Of a stretch of DNA of 44,361 bases, positions 1,898 to 11,552 are shown piece after piece (positions within the stretch are counted from its first letter, which is position 1; the number at the start of each line of letters is the position of its first letter). The position numbers were made by a program, and so were the translations under genes. The notes beneath the pieces were generated by a model. The model ran no database searches. It saw nothing but the letters and a program-made list of their open reading frames with translations, and had not been told where the DNA came from. Source of the stretch: Clostridia bacterium (GTDB lineage: Bacteria > Bacillota > Clostridia > TANB77 > CAG-465); NCBI GenBank assembly GCA_017478805.1, contig JAFVCY010000061.1, positions 1 to 44,361 of the forward strand, written 5' to 3'.

Positions 1898-1926
1898 TTT
1901 ACTTTTTATGTAATGTGTGGTATAAT
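1898..1926 (+). promoter_or_regulatory. Sigma-A type promoter for the gene at 1991
   Basis: TTTACT (1898-1903), 17-nt spacer, extended -10 TGgTATAAT (1918-1926). It overlaps the ATG at 1913 of the ORF track. Confidence 0.55.
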
Positions 1927-1990
1927 AACCATGCAAAAAATTAATCATGATGATGTAATTACTACATCAAGTAAAAAAGGAGGTATTAAT

Positions 1991-3520
1991 ATGCCATTTG
2001 ACAAGAAAAATCTTTTAAGGAAGTTAATTCCCAAAAGCTACAGTTTTGATGGCTATGATGCAGTAGCTATAGAAGATGGAATAAGAGCTCCTCTTTTTTC
2101 TGATCACAGTATAGTAATGAACAATTTTACAGTAGACTTTTTGTACTATCCAGCAAAAGAGTTAGTAATTATAAAGTTTGAGGATAAAGCTATTGGAAGA
2201 CACTTTCAATCTTTTGATAATTACCAACTTAGTATAGATAATTTAGCTAAAATGCTTAAAGAAGCTATTCAAAATGGTGCCGATTTCATATCTTTTCCAG
2301 TTACTGCAAAATGGAATTTTGGGCAAGAGGTAGAAGATGAATATGCAGCTATATCTTTTAACCCATCGGAAGCTAAAGAAGCTCTTGCTTCTTACTTTGG
2401 TATAACTAATCAATCAGGAGGAAAGAAAACTATGAAAAAGAAAAATTCGCTTTTCGGTCTTAATCTTAAGTTCGGTCTGGTGAAAGACTCAAACATCGCA
2501 TCTACCATTATGGGTATTGCAGTAAAAAACGCAGAAACTGGTAACTGGTACATCTACGATAAGGCTGCAGGTACTCGGAAGAACATGGCAAACATAAAGC
2601 TTGGAAGTCTCCCTATCTATATGCTCCCTGTAAAGAAAGAGCAGCTTGCAACAGGTAAACTCATTATGTATAATAATGAATACTGCTTTGTTTACGATGT
2701 TGATCCCTCGAAAAATACCATAAAGATTATGAATGCGGCCGACGGCAATATTCGTGAGGTTATTCCTGAAGACAGCATAATTCCTGGAATGAGCTTCTTT
2801 ACAGAGCTTGTTGCTATGGATATGACTTCCCTTGCAAATCTTGGTGGTCCTAATCAGGGCATTTCGGGAAATATTATGGCAGCTATTTGCCTTATGCAGT
2901 GGTCTAAAGCAGATAATGACGATGAAAGTGAGTTTTCACTTGACGACATCGACGACAGCTCTTTCAATGGTCTCGGCGCGGCACTTCCCCTGCTTATGGC
3001 TGGAAACGGCAACTTAAGTAACAATCTGCTCCCTATCATGATGATGAGCTCTGGAGACGGACAGATGGATACAATGCAGCTTCTGCTGCTTTCGCAGATG
3101 ATGAGTGGCTCTGATCCGAATCTTGCAAATCCTTTCCAGAACATATTCCCTGCTTCAGCTGGCAGTGAATCAAATTCTGCAGGTGGCGACGTTAGATGTG
3201 AAAAATGCAATTCTCTCTATGACGCTGATACCGCTTACTGCCCGAAATGTGGCTCAAAAACAATACCTGCAGGAAGCTTTTGCAGAAGGTGCGGAAACAA
3301 ACTTATAGCAGGCGACCTCTTCTGCAGAAAATGTGGAACAAAAGTTGCAGAAGATAATGTTTGCCCAAGCTGTGGAAAAAAACTTGAGCCGGGCGATGCT
3401 TTTTGCCCTGGATGTGGAACTAACCTAAAAGTCCAGGCTATACCCGTTACTAGCCAGGCAAGTAATGAGAATATAGTAGCAGATACAATATCTGTAGCTG
3501 AAAGTTCTGATGATAAATAA
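1991..3520 (+). CDS. Paralogous N-domain protein with a G/C-richer central region and three C-terminal zinc ribbons
   Basis: Start moved to ATG 1991: GGAGG lies 7 nt upstream and the leader AAAGGAGGnATTAATATG matches the gene at 329. The N-terminus is homologous to both copies in 329..1820 (FDKKNLLRKLIPKSYSFDGY; ISFNPSEAKEALASYFG). Six CxxC pairs sit at the C-terminus. Confidence 0.75.
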   Translation: MPFDKKNLLRKLIPKSYSFDGYDAVAIEDGIRAPLFSDHSIVMNNFTVDFLYYPAKELVIIKFEDKAIGRHFQSFDNYQLSIDNLAKMLKEAIQNGADFISFPVTAKWNFGQEVEDEYAAISFNPSEAKEALASYFGITNQSGGKKTMKKKNSLFGLNLKFGLVKDSNIASTIMGIAVKNAETGNWYIYDKAAGTRKNMANIKLGSLPIYMLPVKKEQLATGKLIMYNNEYCFVYDVDPSKNTIKIMNAADGNIREVIPEDSIIPGMSFFTELVAMDMTSLANLGGPNQGISGNIMAAICLMQWSKADNDDESEFSLDDIDDSSFNGLGAALPLLMAGNGNLSNNLLPIMMMSSGDGQMDTMQLLLLSQMMSGSDPNLANPFQNIFPASAGSESNSAGGDVRCEKCNSLYDADTAYCPKCGSKTIPAGSFCRRCGNKLIAGDLFCRKCGTKVAEDNVCPSCGKKLEPGDAFCPGCGTNLKVQAIPVTSQASNENIVADTISVAESSDDK

Positions 3521-3828
3521 TGGGAATAAACTATTCAAAAAGACTTCCTATATCTACTCAGAAGGTTAAGAAGTGCGAAAGTTGTAAAAAAGTTTTTTCA
3601 GAAGATGCAAACTTTTGCAGTGCTTGTGGAAAGAAACTTATGACTGAAAAATTATCAGTTTACGCAAATATTGGAAAAAATGGTATATCTTCTTTTAGTT
3701 ACAAGCTTCCAAATGGAACTACAATAAATTCCAAAGGAAATATAACTTTAAAGCTTGCAAAGGGAATATCATATACTACAAATTCTAAACCTAAAAAGAA
3801 AAATACGAAGTCTAATGACAAAAATTAA
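3520..3828 (+). CDS. Small zinc-ribbon protein with DUF4236-like flanks
   Basis: ATG overlaps the upstream TAA (ATAATGG), implying translational coupling. It has CESC..CSAC plus MGINYSKRL.. and ..GISSFSYKLPNGTTINSKGNITLKLAKGISYTT, which resemble the DUF4236 repeat pattern (from memory). Confidence 0.55.
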   Translation: MGINYSKRLPISTQKVKKCESCKKVFSEDANFCSACGKKLMTEKLSVYANIGKNGISSFSYKLPNGTTINSKGNITLKLAKGISYTTNSKPKKKNTKSNDKN

Positions 3829-3840
3829 AATTTCAAAAGC

Positions 3841-3874
3841 CACGACTTATGCTATGCATAAGCCGTGACTTTTT
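3841..3874. terminator. Bidirectional terminator between the convergent units
   Basis: Stem CACGACTTATGC 3841-3852 / GCATAAGCCGTG 3856-3867 (one mismatch). T-run follows on the plus strand and a T-rich tail on the minus strand. It overlaps the last codons of 3852..5093. Confidence 0.7.
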
Positions 3875-5093
3875 CCTTATACTCATTAAATTCGTTTCTT
3901 GTAAGACCGTATGTGTAGTAGAGTGAGTTAAAGCTTGGAAGCTCTCTTTTTAGTATTTCACATGCTCTTTTTATGAAATCACAAGAATACACCTCGTTTT
4001 TCACACTTTTGTAATAATAAAGCATTGTAGCAGGAAGCTGGTCAAGACAGGTAAATACTACATTTACTTTTAACTCCTCTGATGCATGTTCTAAATCTTT
4101 TGATATGGATTTAAGTAACATGTCAAAATCTAGATATGAAAACCTTAAACTCCCCTGAAATTCATTAAATACATTAGTCCTATCTTCTACTCCACTATAC
4201 GGAATACTTTTAAGTTCATTTTTTAATTTTCCTGCTCCATGTCTTGTAAAGTAGCACCTACTTACATAATATACATCAACTTTTTCAGTATAATTAATAT
4301 CTTCTAAAATTTCTAGTGCATTTTTTATTCCCGTACTTGAAGATGTAACATTTGGAAATCCTTCTTCGTTATCTTTATCAAGCATTAGTCCCTGACTTCC
4401 TTCAAATACCACACTGTCAAATGCTGATATAATGCTATTTTCTTCTATTTCTATAGTTTTTAAAAATTCATTAGAGTAAAACATAAACATATCTATGTTT
4501 TCTTCATCGGTAATCAGAGCTTGATATTTTTCAGGTAAGTCCTTTAACGTTAGATTATACTCTTCTTTTAGTCTTTTTTGAACATATTCTTCTTGTATAA
4601 TTTTAAGTTTCTTTTTAAGGTTAGTTCTAAATATAAGGTCAGAAACTGTTATTTGATAGCTTAATTTTTTACTTCTTTCTACAGTTTCATTTATTCCAAA
4701 TCCACAACTTCCATGACGTGACATTCCCCTTAAGGTTTCAACAGCTTGATTTATATATACATCCCAAAAAGTAGTAACTAAAGCATGAGGATTAACTATT
4801 ACTTTTGGATTTAATCCAAAACTTTCTTCAAGCTTTTTTCTTTCAAGAACATATTCAGGTAGATTTATTATATAATATCTACTTAAGTATGTCTTAGCAC
4901 CTAAAAATGTACCACTTCCAAAGCTTCTAAATGCATGTCTATTACCATTTGGAGTAACTACAGTATGTGATGCCTGTGCTCCACCAGAAAACCGTACATT
5001 TAAAGTATTATTTTCTTGCGACAAAATATCAGTTATATGCCCTTTTCCTTCATCTCCCCACATACTCCCTATAATTATGCTGCATTTATTCAT
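3852..5093 (-). CDS. Divergent adenylosuccinate synthetase (PurA) family enzyme, substrate probably not the canonical IMP + aspartate
   Basis: PurA motifs occur in the canonical order: SMWGDEGKGH (P-loop GDEGKG), GGAQASHT (cf. GGHNAGHT), FEGSQG (cf. FEGAQG), VTSS, TRHGAG. RBS AAGGAGAG. The Arg-rich GxTTGRRRR loop and the (S/T)KLD guanine motif are altered. Confidence 0.8.
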   Translation of the reverse strand: MNKCSIIIGSMWGDEGKGHITDILSQENNTLNVRFSGGAQASHTVVTPNGNRHAFRSFGSGTFLGAKTYLSRYYIINLPEYVLERKKLEESFGLNPKVIVNPHALVTTFWDVYINQAVETLRGMSRHGSCGFGINETVERSKKLSYQITVSDLIFRTNLKKKLKIIQEEYVQKRLKEEYNLTLKDLPEKYQALITDEENIDMFMFYSNEFLKTIEIEENSIISAFDSVVFEGSQGLMLDKDNEEGFPNVTSSSTGIKNALEILEDINYTEKVDVYYVSRCYFTRHGAGKLKNELKSIPYSGVEDRTNVFNEFQGSLRFSYLDFDMLLKSISKDLEHASEELKVNVVFTCLDQLPATMLYYYKSVKNEVYSCDFIKRACEILKRELPSFNSLYYTYGLTRNEFNEYKEKVTAYA

Positions 5094-5113
5094 TTTGCTC
5101 TCCTTTTCCTTTT

Positions 5114-5139
5114 AAGTAAAAAGGGAGAGTTTTTCTCCC
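5114..5139 (-). terminator. Intra-operon hairpin plus U5 (partial terminator/attenuator) between the vWA and PurA-like genes
   Basis: Minus strand: GGGAGA / TCTCCC stem (5123-5128 with 5134-5139), 5-nt loop, then TTTTT (complement of 5118-5122). Confidence 0.45.
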
Positions 5140-5163
5140 CCTTCATTACTTAAAAAATGGTTA

Positions 5164-6117
5164 TTAAAATACATCAATTTGAGCGTTCTGCTCTATACTT
5201 ACCGCATTTTCCTTAACTATTTCTTCATGCGTTTCTAAAGCGTGAGATACCACATCTCTTGCATATACATCTTCAATTCCGTTTATTACATCTGCTTTAG
5301 GAACACCCTCATACATTTTAAGAACTGATGTTACAAGTTCAGGAAGGAATTCATGGTGAGTTAAATCAAGTGCATGAGAGCCCATAAGCTGTTTCCAGTC
5401 ATTTACAACTCCACTCGAATACCCATTACCTTGTAATATTACATGATAGCAGTAAAACTTTTCTTCTGCCATTTCAAGAAGATCAAGATTTGTGTACTGA
5501 CTTGGCTCGCCACTTAAATCTAAATTTTCTCCAAAAACCTTTTTTAAGCTTCTGCTTGTTATGTATGGTGTTGGATACTCATCTCCAAATGTGAAAAGGA
5601 ATCCCTTTTCTCCTCTTTTATCATAGCAGTCCATCTTTATGCATTTAGCTGCAAAATACCAAGGAAGGATGTAGCTTTCATAATTATTGTAGCCTCCTCT
5701 TTTTTCAAGCCATATTTTTTGAAGCTGGTCGAGCATTCTTAAATCAGCTTCAAACTGCGTTACTTGAAGTGGCGCTTCGTCAAATTCTACATCACCTACC
5801 CCCATAAACATTATATGAGGATTATATGAAACAGCGCTATATGTAGAAGTTATGAGCCGAGGGAACTGCTTGGTTATAAGGTCAAGTAAAAAGAACCCCA
5901 TTGAACCTGTTACATCTTCTGCAAAAATTATTCCTCTTGAATGCGGAGAATCAGGAGAGTCGCAAGCTTCTCTTGGAAGCTTAATCTTTGCCGGATTAAA
6001 CTCATCCTGCATATTTGTCTCCTTAAAAACCTGTGAAGCATTTGTTACGCTGCTCCACTCTTTTCTTTGTGCGTAGTAAGAACGGATTTCTTTTGCACCT
6101 ACTGATCTACCACCCAT
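5164..6117 (-). CDS. von Willebrand factor A (vWA) domain protein
   Basis: IIFAEDVTGSMG (hydrophobic strand plus MIDAS-like DxTGS) and a later FLFTFGDE strand. RBS AGGAGG lies 9 nt before ATG 6117. Confidence 0.7.
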   Translation of the reverse strand: MGGRSVGAKEIRSYYAQRKEWSSVTNASQVFKETNMQDEFNPAKIKLPREACDSPDSPHSRGIIFAEDVTGSMGFFLLDLITKQFPRLITSTYSAVSYNPHIMFMGVGDVEFDEAPLQVTQFEADLRMLDQLQKIWLEKRGGYNNYESYILPWYFAAKCIKMDCYDKRGEKGFLFTFGDEYPTPYITSRSLKKVFGENLDLSGEPSQYTNLDLLEMAEEKFYCYHVILQGNGYSSGVVNDWKQLMGSHALDLTHHEFLPELVTSVLKMYEGVPKADVINGIEDVYARDVVSHALETHEEIVKENAVSIEQNAQIDVF

Positions 6118-6141
6118 AATACTTTTCCTCCTAAATAAAAT

Positions 6142-7197
6142 TTAATTTATGGAAATGCCCATTTCGGCAAATCTCCTCTTTCCAAAGCTTTCTATTACAA
6201 CGTCTTCCCAAGTTTTAAATTCTTCGTAAGCATTTATCTTGATGCTACTTTCAGTAATCCATTTTTTCATTGCCTCCGGAATTTGAAATGCCTTGCTAGA
6301 GTCAAAGTTCAAAAGATTTCTTGCTACCTGCTTTATTGCAAGCAGATCTAAAACATACGAAGAATATCCTGTATTTTTTATTTGCTTTGGAAGTATGCTG
6401 TATATTTCAGCTGGAACTCCAGAAATCTTTTCGCCATAATTGGTAGAGAAAAACCATCCTCCATACACACCTACTATTCTTAAATCACTTACATTAAATT
6501 TGGCTCCTTCTTCTACAAATTTTCCAGGTGCAAAAAAGAGATTATCTACAGTAAGTGCATTATGAGAAATTTTTAAGATTTCTAGATAACACTCAAAATA
6601 GTAAAGTTTAGTAAGAATAGAAGCGACATACTCTGGCTTAATGTATCCACTAAAGTAATTTAATACCTCTCTTAAAGGATAAATCTGGCTTCCGTTTGGA
6701 AGAAGTGACTCTATGACAAAACCTTCCTCTCCCCTAAAATTATTTGAAAGTTTTGGAAACATGTACTGAACATTTTCCCACATACTACGATTTAACTTTG
6801 GAATAAATTTTGTCTTTGAAACGTAATTGTTATAATACTTTTCAAATTCTGGTTTTATAACAAAAATTACACTTTCTTTTGTTACATACATTGTTCCAAT
6901 TTTTATATCATATGAGTAGTCATATTCAAAAATAATCTTTGAGCCATCGTCTTTTATTAAAATCATATTAGAAGAAGTATGATAAGTAACCTCTCCACTT
7001 TCTATCATTTCTACTGCTTTTCTATATAATACTGTTACTTTTTGATTAAGAATAAAGTTCTTTACAGTTGCATATTCTTTTGGTCTAAACCGTTTTAAAT
7101 ATTCATTTTTTTCTTTTTCAATTACGTTTAGGTCTTGTGTGTAAATTTCAAACGGAGAAACTGCACTCATTATTTTTTCTTCGGATTCACATTTCAT
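6142..7197 (-). CDS. Hypothetical protein: N-terminal ~60-aa module shared with 7377..7889, C-terminal region with degenerate protein-kinase-like motif spacing
   Basis: Start moved to ATG 7197 (RBS AAAGGGG 7 nt upstream). Motif spacing resembles beta3-K / hinge / HRD..N / DFG / APE: VIFVIKPEF .. FVIESLLPNG .. ISHNALTVDNLFF .. VGVYGGWFF .. GVPAEIY. The catalytic Asp and DFG are not conserved. The kinase-like fold is an inference. Confidence 0.55.
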   Translation of the reverse strand: MKCESEEKIMSAVSPFEIYTQDLNVIEKEKNEYLKRFRPKEYATVKNFILNQKVTVLYRKAVEMIESGEVTYHTSSNMILIKDDGSKIIFEYDYSYDIKIGTMYVTKESVIFVIKPEFEKYYNNYVSKTKFIPKLNRSMWENVQYMFPKLSNNFRGEEGFVIESLLPNGSQIYPLREVLNYFSGYIKPEYVASILTKLYYFECYLEILKISHNALTVDNLFFAPGKFVEEGAKFNVSDLRIVGVYGGWFFSTNYGEKISGVPAEIYSILPKQIKNTGYSSYVLDLLAIKQVARNLLNFDSSKAFQIPEAMKKWITESSIKINAYEEFKTWEDVVIESFGKRRFAEMGISIN

Positions 7198-7260
7198 GAA
7201 AATTCCCCTTTCTTCATGCAAAATTGTTATTTTGCATTTTTTACCCTTATTACAGCTAGT

Positions 7261-7289
7261 ATTTTACCACACCGCAATTAATATGTCAA
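7261..7289 (-). promoter_or_regulatory. Sigma-A type promoter of the 3-gene operon 7197->3852
   Basis: Minus strand TTGACA (7289-7284), 17-nt spacer, TGgTAAAAT (-10 hexamer at 7266-7261). Confidence 0.7.
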
Positions 7290-7376: not shown

Positions 7377-7889
7377 TTAATGGTACATAAACATTTTATT
7401 CATTTTCATCATTTTTTTGTATCTTGCAATATTCTTTTTGCTTATATTTTTTAATTTACGCTCCATAAAAATCGCTCTAGACTTAAGAAGCTGTTTATAA
7501 ATCTCGCTACTTGAAGAGTAACCTCTATCATATTGGTAATTACCGTTTATTTCTTCTTGAGGTTCATATTCTTCACAGCCAAAGCTTATATTTTCCTCAG
7601 TCATTTTAAGTGCTTCATCTTCGACATTTTCTGCACACTGCTCAATATTTTCACTTTCTAAATCTTCATCTTGAGCCGAAACTTTTCCTTCTTTTAACAT
7701 TTCTAATGCCAAATTATACAAAATAGTTATCTTCATTGATATTACTAAATTTCTTACTCTTTCATAAGGTTTAGGAGCATATTCACTCAAAAAAATACTT
7801 AATTCTTGTTTCATTTTCTCCATATCCGGAGTGAATATTATAAAAGGATCACCCATTTCTATAGCAGATATTACTTTGCTTATTTCCAT
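7377..7889 (-). CDS. Small protein: paralog of the N-terminal module of 6142..7197, acidic linker, basic C-terminal tail
   Basis: 21 identities over a 57-residue ungapped hand alignment with 6142..7197 (DPFIIFTPDM..APKPYERVRN..KITILY..ALEMLKEGKV). It has its own promoter and terminator. Confidence 0.55.
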   Translation of the reverse strand: MEISKVISAIEMGDPFIIFTPDMEKMKQELSIFLSEYAPKPYERVRNLVISMKITILYNLALEMLKEGKVSAQDEDLESENIEQCAENVEDEALKMTEENISFGCEEYEPQEEINGNYQYDRGYSSSSEIYKQLLKSRAIFMERKLKNISKKNIARYKKMMKMNKMFMYH

Positions 7890-9854: not shown

Positions 9855-11552
9855 ATGGAAGGTACATATAATAAATATTTATTAAAACTTGCAAAAAAGT
9901 GCACACTTTCTGAGGAATTTATAGATATTATAGATAAATTTTTTAATAAACTAATTGATTTTGGATATATCTCTAGAAGAGCTAAAATTAACCTTTCAAA
10001 AAAGCTTTTAAACAACTTAGATACAGTGATTGTGTCAAATAACCAGTCAATAGATTTTAAGACAGGATATTATGATGCAAACAAGAAAGAGTTATATTTG
10101 AAAGATATTTCAAATCTCCAGTCAGTATACTTAAGGCTTCTTTATGTTGTAACTACTAAAGAGTTATCTGACGGGACATATTCTACAGGGTATTCAAAAT
10201 CTTTCCAATCTAAAACATCATTTGGAATAGAACACAAAAATTTTGGAATTAATAGAGCTGTTATGTCAAATCTAGTTTGTAGATTACTCTATACACTGCC
10301 TACTACTCTTTCTATTGTTCCAACATACAGGACTTATGAAAATAACTTTTTAGGCTACAAAATTAATTCTGACAATGATATATATTTCTTAGAGGGAAAA
10401 GTTCTAAGACAAATATGCTACGTTTTAGGAATTAGTGAAGAAAAGCTATACTCAAACCTATTTTCACTTAATCCAACTAGAGAAATATCAAAAATATTCG
10501 ACAAAATAGATGATGGCGATATTCTATTTTACTTAGATAGAATAAGTAGAGCGTATTCAAACTACAATAAACTTTGCTATTACAATAATTTAATATCTGA
10601 TAATTATATAGAAATAAAAAAGACTGCAAGTACTCCAGAAGCTACTTTTGCAATTGCAAAAAAACGTGAGATTGAACTTTCACTAAAAAAAGTTATGCAA
10701 AAAATGTTCCCTGAGCTTGATGATGATAATGAAAATCCACTTCTTAATCTTGAAGGAAGCTTAGCAGAAAAAATTTCAGATTTAGAAGAACTTATACTTG
10801 AGTATTTATCTAAAGTTCAAGAAGTGCTCGCAAACGAGCTAGTTAAACAAAAAAATAAATTCTCACCACTTGGATATGTTACTAAGCTAAAAGTTTTTGA
10901 GGATATGTTAGTACTTAAAAATGACATTATAACAAAAGAAATACACGATACGATAACTCATAGTCTTATCTTTGCTAATGAGTATAGCTGTACAAATTTA
11001 ATAGAAAAGATTAAATATTCTTTAGCACTTTTTGGCCTTTCAAGTACGAACAATTTGAAAATTTTTGATGATACTAAGTTTTATAAACTAAAAGGAATTA
11101 ATGAAAGCTTGTCTACTTCTGCAATTTGTATTAGAAATGGTGACTTTCTAGAGATTGCTAATATTTCAAAGCTTGATAAGGAAACAAGTGATATAATGGA
11201 TAATGTTGAGTTATTAAAATTGAGCTCTATTGCACATATGTTAAATACTAGTACTTCTTCTGAAATACTTGAAACAATTATTACGAATATAAGGGATTAT
11301 GATGAAGCATATAAAAAATTAGATGTAAGTAACCTTTATCTTGCAAAAGATGAATATCATACATATATAATAGTAAATAATATACCAAATCCGGTAATAT
11401 TTACAGTTGATAAAGATGCTTTGGTAAATATAGTAAACTTTTCTGAGCAGTATATTATTCTTGGTGAAACTACTTCACTTCCTACAGTGTATAAAGAGAG
11501 AAAATTATTTAATTTTATTAGAAATCTTCCTTTATTCCAAAAAAGTAATTAG
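9855..11552 (+). CDS. Hypothetical protein, 565 aa, no domain recognised
   Basis: Long ORF with RBS GGAGG 8 nt before the ATG. Possible own promoter (TTGTAA 9789-9794 / TATCAT 9812-9817). Terminator downstream. Confidence 0.75.
   Translation: MEGTYNKYLLKLAKKCTLSEEFIDIIDKFFNKLIDFGYISRRAKINLSKKLLNNLDTVIVSNNQSIDFKTGYYDANKKELYLKDISNLQSVYLRLLYVVTTKELSDGTYSTGYSKSFQSKTSFGIEHKNFGINRAVMSNLVCRLLYTLPTTLSIVPTYRTYENNFLGYKINSDNDIYFLEGKVLRQICYVLGISEEKLYSNLFSLNPTREISKIFDKIDDGDILFYLDRISRAYSNYNKLCYYNNLISDNYIEIKKTASTPEATFAIAKKREIELSLKKVMQKMFPELDDDNENPLLNLEGSLAEKISDLEELILEYLSKVQEVLANELVKQKNKFSPLGYVTKLKVFEDMLVLKNDIITKEIHDTITHSLIFANEYSCTNLIEKIKYSLALFGLSSTNNLKIFDDTKFYKLKGINESLSTSAICIRNGDFLEIANISKLDKETSDIMDNVELLKLSSIAHMLNTSTSSEILETIITNIRDYDEAYKKLDVSNLYLAKDEYHTYIIVNNIPNPVIFTVDKDALVNIVNFSEQYIILGETTSLPTVYKERKLFNFIRNLPLFQKSN

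Follow-up and report, generated by a model that had tools for sequence, protein, structure and literature searches.

A co-inherited operon of a pseudokinase, a vWA protein and a divergent PurA-family enzyme in bacteria and large phages, with a possible link to NAD and ADP-ribose metabolism

The operon analysed here recalls several described systems, each in a different part. TerY-P triads, of which spoIIE-yabS-yabT of B. subtilis is an example, join a von Willebrand factor A (vWA) protein to a PP2C phosphatase and a Ser/Thr kinase, and the triad is said to have been validated as a defence system by Gao et al. in 2020. Adenylosuccinate synthetase (PurA) and phage PurZ, of the 2-aminoadenine pathway, have the fold of its enzyme, and the MoxR-vWA pairs place a vWA adaptor beside a client enzyme and a chaperone-ATPase factor. 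On the side of nicotinamide adenine dinucleotide (NAD), NrtR is an ADP-ribose-responsive repressor of NAD genes, which is released from DNA when it binds ADP-ribose, a product of NAD cleavage (PMC2330246), and 'nrtR<#>nrtX-nrtY' divergons without an assigned function have been listed in Proteus, Hahella, Frankia, Kineococcus and Streptomyces (Rodionov et al., 2008, PMC2330246). Iyer et al. (2022, PMC9503650) predicted ADP-ribose conflict systems that are under NrtR/WYL control and include vWA 'peptide-binding chaperones', and phages are known to reconstitute NAD through NARP1 (Adps and Namat), NARP2 (Nampt and Nmnat) and NARP3 (PnuC and NadR) (bioRxiv 10.1101/2024.02.11.579819; PMC13464706). 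Our subject is a three-gene operon, A-B-C, on the minus strand of a 44,361-nucleotide (nt) contig from a Clostridia bacterium (JAFVCY010000061.1, analysed over its whole length and called the window below). It encodes a pseudokinase, a vWA protein and a divergent member of the PurA family.

Gene A (7197-6142) encodes 351 amino acids, a degenerate J-like N-terminus followed by a pseudokinase domain; gene B (6117-5164) encodes a vWA protein of 317 amino acids, and gene C (5093-3852) an adenylosuccinate-synthetase-family enzyme of 413 amino acids. When one genome of each species was scanned, 348 species proved to have a relative of B, and we read the best 80 of these loci together with six metagenome contigs. 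Among these 86 loci, C lies directly downstream of B wherever there is enough sequence, and A lies directly upstream of B in 77, some of the loci without A being at contig ends. The order and strand of A, B and C are constant across the loci read and the flanking genes vary. The first-pass annotation of the window, which proposed the three genes as an undescribed system, had named co-occurrence in other genomes beforehand as a test, and the scan returned A-B-C conserved in about 80 GTDB species representatives from at least eight phyla. This adjacency is far above chance, and the three genes are a genuine co-inherited set. The conserved core is B plus C, A being dispensable in some loci (it is missing from 9 of the 80). 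That A, B and C form one functional unit is, in our judgement, almost certain.

Two clades can be told apart by the identity of B. In the close clade, which consists of uncultured gut and rumen Clostridia and includes the window, B is 52-65% identical; in the distant clade it is 37-44% identical, and the carriers are Clostridium, Lachnospiraceae, Alpha-, Gamma- and Deltaproteobacteria, Nitrospirae, Acidobacteria and Melainabacteria. Actinobacteria carry the trio abundantly, for example Nocardia, Rhodococcus and Saccharothrix; it is chromosomal in Nocardia and Saccharothrix, and megaplasmid copies occur in Rhodococcus and Agrobacterium vitis. Cultivable carriers include Nocardia, Rhodococcus, Agrobacterium vitis, Clostridium carboxidivorans and Hungatella. 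In public records the members of the family are named 'hypothetical protein', 'VWA domain-containing protein' or 'adenylosuccinate synthetase'.

Phages carry the module as well. A homologue of B is present in 218 phage records, about 200 of which are cluster-C mycobacteriophages. Mycobacterium phage Dandelion encodes, in this order, gp267 (kinase), gp268 (B), gp269 (a small gene) and gp270 (PurA), and the family-wide profile of A matches gp267 with an E-value of 2.8e-20. The remaining records, Vibrio phages of 190-195 kb and Rhizobium phages of about 207 kb, have B and C with no detectable A. Directly upstream of B, Vibrio phage Va1 (locus L087, 4222-4935) and Rhizobium phage RHph_Y65 (locus L088, 3690-4481) each encode a protein of about 240-260 amino acids with a Met-rich tail; the two are 39% identical to each other, and the Va1 reading frame is unannotated. 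Superficially these proteins are like the Met-rich part of the product of gene D, a zinc-ribbon neighbour of the window operon described below, but homology is not supported: BLASTP returned nothing, and hhalign gave a probability of 32%, confined to the Met-rich stretch.

The residues of C set it apart within its family. C matches Pfam PF00709 over residues 6-306 (E-value 2.8e-41, 142 bits), matches adenylosuccinate synthetase chains in the PDB (E-value 5e-19) and is 27% identical to E. coli PurA over residues 5-282. It reaches 109.4 bits with the PurA equivalog model TIGR00184 (cut-off 395.6), 117.7 bits with NF002223 (cut-off 402) and 44.7 bits with the PurZ model NF038379 (cut-off 300). 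No other purA lies within the 44-kb window. For a residue-level comparison we aligned 79 members of the C family with E. coli PurA; the numbering of the reference sequence fits the positions in the literature, and its range of match to C agrees with that of the PDB match. The P-loop GDEGKG (with Asp13 and Lys16), His41, Thr42, Gln224, Thr239 and Gly274 are invariant in the family, and the guanine-specific Asp333 is present in 77 of the 79.

The site that holds L-aspartate in PurA is, by the same comparison, replaced throughout the family. Of its five ligands, Arg303 is deleted, Arg305 is Leu, Thr300 is Phe, Tyr or Trp, Thr301 is Gln, and Arg131 is Val, Leu or Met. Four further changes are invariant, namely Asn38 to Gln, Thr129 to Cys, Val273 to His and Lys331 to Cys, and Arg143, which contacts the 5'-phosphate from the dimer partner, is not conserved; the ligands of the inosine monophosphate (IMP) phosphate, Asn38, Thr129 and Arg143, are thus altered as well. 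The combination of invariant GTP and phosphotransfer residues with replaced aspartate ligands argues that C is under strong selection and could bind GTP and transfer phosphate, and that it would not bind aspartate in the manner of PurA. The remodelling of the substrate site noticed in the first-pass annotation is supported, and the replaced aspartate ligands extend over the whole family. With model scores of 110-118 bits against cut-offs near 400 and the aspartate site replaced, C is, as far as its sequence tells, not the canonical housekeeping purA. The other refuting case that the first-pass annotation had named, that of a canonical purA beside unrelated neighbours, is thus not borne out either.

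Neither A nor B has a significant match in Pfam, NCBIfam, PADLOC or PDB-sequence searches, and we assigned their folds from AlphaFold2 models, built on alignments of homologues and compared by Foldseek. The proposed kinase, vWA and PF00709 folds of A, B and C were borne out by these profile and structure comparisons. B has a vWA, or integrin I-domain, fold (predicted local distance difference test, pLDDT, 80.6), and its structural matches also include TFIIH Ssl1, ArnB and NorD; despite this fold, no Pfam VWA model matches it. Its metal-ion-dependent adhesion site (MIDAS) is intact, with D68-x-T70-G71-S72, then T, then G178-D179-E180. Among 84 sequences, phages included, 83 start with Met-Gly, and the motifs RE(S/A)CDS, D-x-APLQ-x-TQFE-x-D and GG-x-N-x-x-ESY are conserved. 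For an adaptor this conservation is unusually high, with many invariant polar residues. B has 1,688 relatives at 90% clustering, and an exhaustive profile search returned 1,585 clusters at 50% identity, all of them stand-alone proteins of about 300 amino acids. B corresponds to PHROG family phrog_2971, the function of which is unassigned in PHROG. Its best viral structural match, BFVD entry A0A3G3M5V4 from Mycobacterium phage Sauce, has 595 amino acids and a template-modelling (TM) score of 0.76 over the query. This match suggests that some cluster-C phages have a longer variant of B, produced by insertion or fusion.

A has a bilobal protein-kinase fold (pLDDT 83), which Foldseek matches to VRK1/3, CK1, EGFR and DCLK1 with a probability of 1.0, an E-value of about 1e-5 and TM scores of 0.4-0.55. 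Against the PDB, the family-wide profile of A matches both kinases (E-value 7e-5, including STK33 and Aurora) and J-domains (E-value 3e-5). The catalytic site has been lost. In the motif SHNALTVDN, Ala/Gly stands in place of the HRD aspartate, and GGW occupies the DFG position, where the mycobacteriophage homologue retains IDW; the family has no conserved beta-3 (VAIK) lysine and almost no conserved catalytic-site residue. With the HRD aspartate, DFG and the other catalytic residues gone, the sequence marks A as a catalytically dead pseudokinase, and the degeneracy noticed at first reading is confirmed.

In the distant clade the first 70 residues of A make up a J-domain; 46 of 51 sequences have its canonical HPD motif, and Pfam DnaJ matches (E-value 1.5e-5) just below the cut-off. 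In the window clade the helices are kept and HPD is found in 0 of 20 close-clade sequences, the window itself reading RFRPKEY, with RPK at the HPD position. Judged by these motifs, A is in most lineages a co-chaperone fusion with a J-domain. In Hungatella, Butyrivibrio and Lachnospiraceae (four loci, L058, L059, L074 and L083) an N-terminal CxxC...CxxC zinc ribbon stands in place of the J-domain. These zinc-ribbon variants of A in Lachnospiraceae recall D and E, which in the window clade are zinc-ribbon proteins encoded by genes of their own.

The genes around the module point to NAD and ADP-ribose. In 33 of 61 distant loci the neighbouring gene encodes an NrtR-family regulator (NUDIX plus NrtR_WHD); it lies just upstream of A or, in loci without A, of B. 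The same NrtR divergon is found in Agrobacterium, and in Actinobacteria a divergent NrtR-like gene lies downstream of C. Several Clostridium species have the order NrtR, Prs-like, isochorismatase (PncA-like), NAMPT-like, microbial PARG, A, B, C, and another locus has the order NrtR, A, B, C, PncB; Prs-like and NAMPT-like neighbours occur together in three to four Clostridium loci. Among the phages, a NADAR gene lies just upstream in Vibrio phage Va1, and phosphoribosyltransferase (PRTase) and Nudix genes lie upstream in a Rhizobium phage. The NrtR-linked Prs-like and NAMPT-like pair of Clostridium (loci L053, L077 and L081) looks like a bacterial version of Adps and Namat, the NARP1 pair of phages, and may be identical with the classic prs-nadV operons under NrtR control that were described in 2008. 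Proteobacterial loci have a 21-bp palindrome, TTATTTG-N7-CAAATAA, in front of the operon at a distance of 30-110 nt, and the motif is 28-fold enriched there.

In the window lineage the unit is larger, and elsewhere it is reduced to the B-C core. Gene D (1913-3520, plus strand; likely start at 1991, about 509 amino acids) combines an N-terminal domain, the fold of which is unknown, with a conserved middle domain, a low-complexity stretch rich in Met and three to four zinc ribbons; it matches Pfam DZR and Zn_Ribbon, and is about 510-550 amino acids long across the close clade. Gene E (3520-3828, plus strand) encodes a small zinc-ribbon protein of 102 amino acids (about 90-100 across the clade) with Pfam zinc-ribbon matches; it is translationally coupled to D and convergent with C. 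D adjoins the trio in 25 of 25 close-clade loci and E in 24 of the 25, both usually convergent with C, and both are absent from the distant loci read. Archaeal ArnA/ArnB offer a precedent for a vWA protein paired with a zinc-ribbon protein, and the matches to them in the present system are weak. Two partial paralogues of D, at 329-982 and 1059-1820 on the plus strand, match it by BLASTP with E-values of 1e-20 to 1e-24; the one at 329-982 contains two copies of the N-terminal domain of D, and the one at 1059-1820 consists of a fragment plus zinc ribbons. The D family has thus expanded locally beside the module (329-1820).

We propose a reading that combines these observations, in which C is a GTP-dependent nucleotide ligase served by a vWA/co-chaperone pair under NAD or ADP-ribose stress. 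For this composite we see roughly even chances, and its parts differ in strength. The link of the family to NAD and ADP-ribose is probable; for the window clade in particular the same link is somewhat doubtful. On the evidence of its residues, C would activate a purine-type nucleotide with GTP, passing the gamma-phosphate to an oxygen, and would then join it to a less polar amine. Since C keeps the residues for GTP and phosphotransfer and has lost both the aspartate ligands and part of the site for the 5'-phosphate of IMP, the partner is most likely an amine other than aspartate. A, as a pseudokinase scaffold, and B, with its Mg-binding MIDAS, would be non-catalytic partners that present, assemble or activate C or the target of C. 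By analogy, the J-domain that A has in most lineages would recruit Hsp70/DnaK, and A plus B would be an Hsp70-coupled analogue of the MoxR-vWA activases, or would be comparable to the vWA 'peptide-binding chaperones' predicted for the NrtR/WYL systems (PMC9503650).

The adjacency of NrtR, the operons for NAD salvage and ADP-ribose removal, and the NAD genes of the phages indicate that the module most likely acts during NAD cleavage or ADP-ribosylation. It would be switched on as ADP-ribose accumulates, and would restore or repair a nucleotide pool or adduct. Such a function could benefit a stressed cell and equally a phage facing NAD-depleting immunity. In the window lineage, D, E and another regulator probably replace the lost inputs of the J-domain and NrtR. 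In its boldest form, which we regard as a long shot, the proposal is that B and C are a new ADP-ribose-inducible ligase pathway, which bacteria and large phages would both use in their arms race over NAD and ADP-ribosylation. A 6-oxopurine nucleotide, activated by C with GTP, would be joined via N6 to the invariant N-terminal glycine of B instead of free aspartate, giving a conjugate of protein and nucleotide, while the J-domain pseudokinase brings in Hsp70.

Several observations weigh against this proposal. That A and B serve as an Hsp70 adaptor is purely an analogy, and the J-domain of the window protein has lost its motif. Neither the window nor the 8 kb around the operon in 25 close-clade loci contains an NrtR or NAD gene, so that the NAD link for the window clade is carried over from homologues only 37-44% identical. 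In the distant clade itself, 28 of the 61 loci have no adjacent NrtR, and NAD-salvage enzymes are adjacent in only five loci. The published NrtR operator core, GT-N7-AC, was not found upstream of the operon, and the enrichment of the palindrome comes largely from related Competibacteraceae genomes. Finally, any specific chemistry assigned to C is read from its residues and is, taken by itself, unlikely to quite unlikely.

Three other explanations must be weighed against the proposed ligase module. The first-pass annotation had likened the operon to TerY-P, and the trio could be an anti-phage abortive-infection system of that type, in which the vWA/pseudokinase pair senses infection and C acts as the toxin, either by depleting GTP or IMP or by producing a harmful nucleotide. 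The pairing of a vWA protein with a kinase-like one does recall TerY-P, the spread is patchy over many phyla and includes megaplasmids, a SNase-like gene lies downstream in one locus, and vWA chaperones are also part of the predicted NrtR/WYL conflict systems (PMC9503650). However, no PADLOC model matches A, B or C, there is neither a PP2C nor an active kinase, and the conserved core is vWA plus PurA-like rather than vWA plus kinase, so the TerY-P framing is not sustained. The flanks are housekeeping or metabolic genes rather than defence islands. In the 218 phage records, mostly from lytic cluster-C mycobacteriophages, the module moreover stands beside genes that restore NAD or remove ADP-ribose, which a restorative role fits better. 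We consider a defence function of this kind unlikely. Those same neighbours would suit a direct role for C in rebuilding NAD, for example by phosphorylating ADP-ribose with GTP and then letting nicotinamide displace the phosphate, or by amidating nicotinic acid mononucleotide or nicotinic acid adenine dinucleotide (NaMN or NaAD), with A and B as helpers. NrtR adjacency, the co-operonic Prs-like, NAMPT-like, PncA-like, PncB and PARG genes and the NAD or ADP-ribose genes beside the phage copies are all in keeping with such a role. The former aspartate pocket, now aromatic or hydrophobic, would suit a pyridine ring, and phages already rebuild NAD through NARP1-3 (bioRxiv 10.1101/2024.02.11.579819; PMC13464706). 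Yet C retains Asp13, His41 and Gln224, which activate the 6-oxo group of a purine, and this favours a purine lactam over a ribose hydroxyl or a carboxylate as the acceptor. Direct NAD rebuilding also does not account for the vWA partner and its invariant N-terminus, and NAD genes are adjacent in few loci only; we hold it to be quite unlikely.

The plainest account would make C a second, divergent adenylosuccinate synthetase and its neighbours unrelated hypothetical genes. It has in its favour the PF00709 match, the 'adenylosuccinate synthetase' name of homologues in public records and the lack of any other purA in the 44-kb window, but it is contradicted by scores of 110-118 bits against equivalog cut-offs of 395-402, by the family-wide replacement of all the aspartate-binding residues, by plasmid and phage copies that coexist with host purine pathways, and by the strict adjacency of B in every locus read. 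It is, we think, highly improbable. The likeness to TerY-P is superficial, and the informative context is the J-domain and Hsp70 together with NrtR, NAD and ADP-ribose, including the phage copies. This context, the phage and plasmid copies and the zinc-ribbon genes D and E were overlooked in the first-pass annotation, whose broader suggestion of a sensor or adaptor that controls a nucleotide-derived product is plausible.

The module is of wider interest for several reasons. A complete GTP activation machinery combined with a new amine pocket makes a new reaction likely for C. The family is large (the 1,585 clusters of B at 50% identity) and occurs in cultivable bacteria and about 200 mycobacteriophages, yet its members are called hypothetical or are mis-annotated, and thousands of database entries named purA are probably wrong. 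The company of NrtR, NAD salvage, PARG and NADAR would place the module in the NAD-centred conflict between phage and host, a field now actively studied, where it could close a gap in the recycling of NAD or ADP-ribose or act as a new counter-defence. A vWA adaptor paired with a J-domain and Hsp70 instead of a MoxR ATPase would, moreover, be the first of its kind.

The control elements of the window operon can be described in some detail, and the layout first reported, with one promoter, three genes, gaps of 24 and 70 nt and good ribosome-binding sites, is correct in coordinates and sequence. Sequence reading and a promoter scan both identify a sigma-70-type promoter at 7289-7261 on the minus strand, TTGACA-17-TAAAAT with an upstream TG (extended -10). 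It agrees with 11 of 12 consensus positions and is the top match across 3.4-8.2 kb, a region in which the total of promoter-like matches is at chance level (24 versus 21.9 expected), and a promoter is likewise visible at the equivalent position in related loci. The A-B gap spans 24 nt (6118-6141) and the B-C gap 70 nt (5094-5163), and the ribosome-binding sites of A (AAAGGGG), B (AGGAGG) and C (AAGGAG) are each a good Shine-Dalgarno sequence. We place the start of A at the ATG at 7197, which gives 351 amino acids and matches database entry P0121. The open reading frame (ORF) opens at 7221, and the upstream alternative start there, a TTG, lies inside an inverted repeat at 7237-7216.

This inverted repeat, ATGCAAAAT-AACA-ATTTTGCAT on the minus strand, lies between the -10 box and the ribosome-binding site of A and differs from the palindrome of the proteobacterial loci. 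Related loci in metagenome-assembled genomes (L001-L025) have an inverted repeat in the same place, with arms that differ yet remain complementary (GTAGAAT...ATTCTAC, GTGAAAT...ATTTCAC), and two-sided changes are seen in three of seven predicted pairs. The element could be either an operator or a hairpin in the 5' untranslated region; covariation does not tell an RNA hairpin from a DNA operator, because a palindromic operator changes symmetrically too. In the B-C spacer, a terminator-like hairpin, GGGAGAG-AAAAA-CTCTCCC followed by T5 (5120-5141, minus strand), might attenuate read-through into C and so lower the amount of enzyme relative to A and B.

The operon is immediately preceded, at 7377-7889 on the minus strand, by an ORF of 170 amino acids with a terminator-like hairpin of its own at the 3' side. 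Its first 67 amino acids are 36% identical to the J-like N-terminus of A (E-value 1.5e-10); an acidic stretch comes next. None of the other loci read has a counterpart of this ORF, and its membership in the system is uncertain.

The surrounding DNA has the look of ordinary chromosome, with about 27% GC and housekeeping-type neighbours (RmuC, a TrmH-like methyltransferase, a PrsA-like peptidyl-prolyl isomerase, Mfd, a topoisomerase and a polysaccharide cluster). Against this 27%, the 3' half of gene D (2401-3600) has 41-42% GC and the region of B 34-37%. Between RmuC and a small membrane protein, an ORF of 565 amino acids (9855-11552, plus strand) has no significant Pfam match, and the DNA flanking it is very AT-rich, with about 20% GC at 9.0-9.6 kb. 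From about 20,000 to 44,361 the window is occupied by a long same-strand polysaccharide or capsule cluster with UDP-glucose dehydrogenase, PGA_cap, a flippase, GT4 glycosyltransferases and two acyltransferase-3 genes; its last gene encodes a CotH-kinase-like protein with Fn3-associated domains.

How the trio stands to what has been described can now be stated. The first-pass annotation held that no such system was known, and in agreement with this our full-text literature search, which did not extend to subscription-only literature, found no description of it. The trio resembles TerY-P in having a vWA protein with a MIDAS beside a kinase fold, in its three-gene operon and in its patchy distribution. 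Unlike TerY-P, it shows no PP2C ORF or Pfam match in the window region or in related loci, and no PADLOC TerY-P model matches any of its proteins. Its kinase fold is without the HRD aspartate, DFG and the beta-3 lysine and carries a J-domain, although in the window without its motif; some loci do without the kinase-like gene, and none does without the PurA-like gene.

With PurA and PurZ, C has in common the fold, the PF00709 match, GDEGKG, Asp13, His41, Gln224 and Asp333. It differs from them in lacking the L-aspartate ligands, in having an invariant His (at Val273) and invariant Cys residues (at Thr129 and Lys331) of its own, and in always being paired with a vWA protein. The MoxR-vWA pairs (NorQ/NorD, CbbQ/CbbO, CobS/CobT and RavA/ViaA) are alike in setting a vWA/MIDAS adaptor beside a client enzyme and a chaperone-ATPase factor. 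In contrast to those pairs, neighbour clustering finds no conserved AAA+ gene adjacent to the trio (one Agrobacterium plasmid has a downstream AAA gene), and the ATPase that we propose, again by analogy, would be the Hsp70 of the host, reached through the J-domain of A.

The NrtR regulon and the NrtR/WYL systems share with the trio the adjacency of NrtR and, near some loci, PARG, NADAR and NAD-salvage genes. The systems of PMC9503650 are, however, built around an ADP-ribosylglycohydrolase, which the trio lacks, and neither PMC2330246 nor PMC9503650 mentions a PurA-family enzyme or a J-domain pseudokinase. The nrtR<#>nrtX-nrtY divergon has the architecture seen as NrtR<>B-C in Competibacteraceae; the two pairs may be the same genes. 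The text of PMC2330246 does not describe nrtX and nrtY, and an actinobacterial B query returned only close relatives in Nocardia and Rhodococcus. NARP1-3, like the trio, occur in large phages and in bacteria, and Prs-like and NAMPT-like genes are co-located in some trio loci, but A, B and C belong to none of the NARP protein families. Taken together, these comparisons suggest that A-B-C is new as a system, with the caveat that B-C may be the nrtX-nrtY of 2008. The module lacks what defines the PurA and PurZ equivalogs, TerY-P, the MoxR-vWA pairs and NARP1-3, and it has folds or context in common with each of them.

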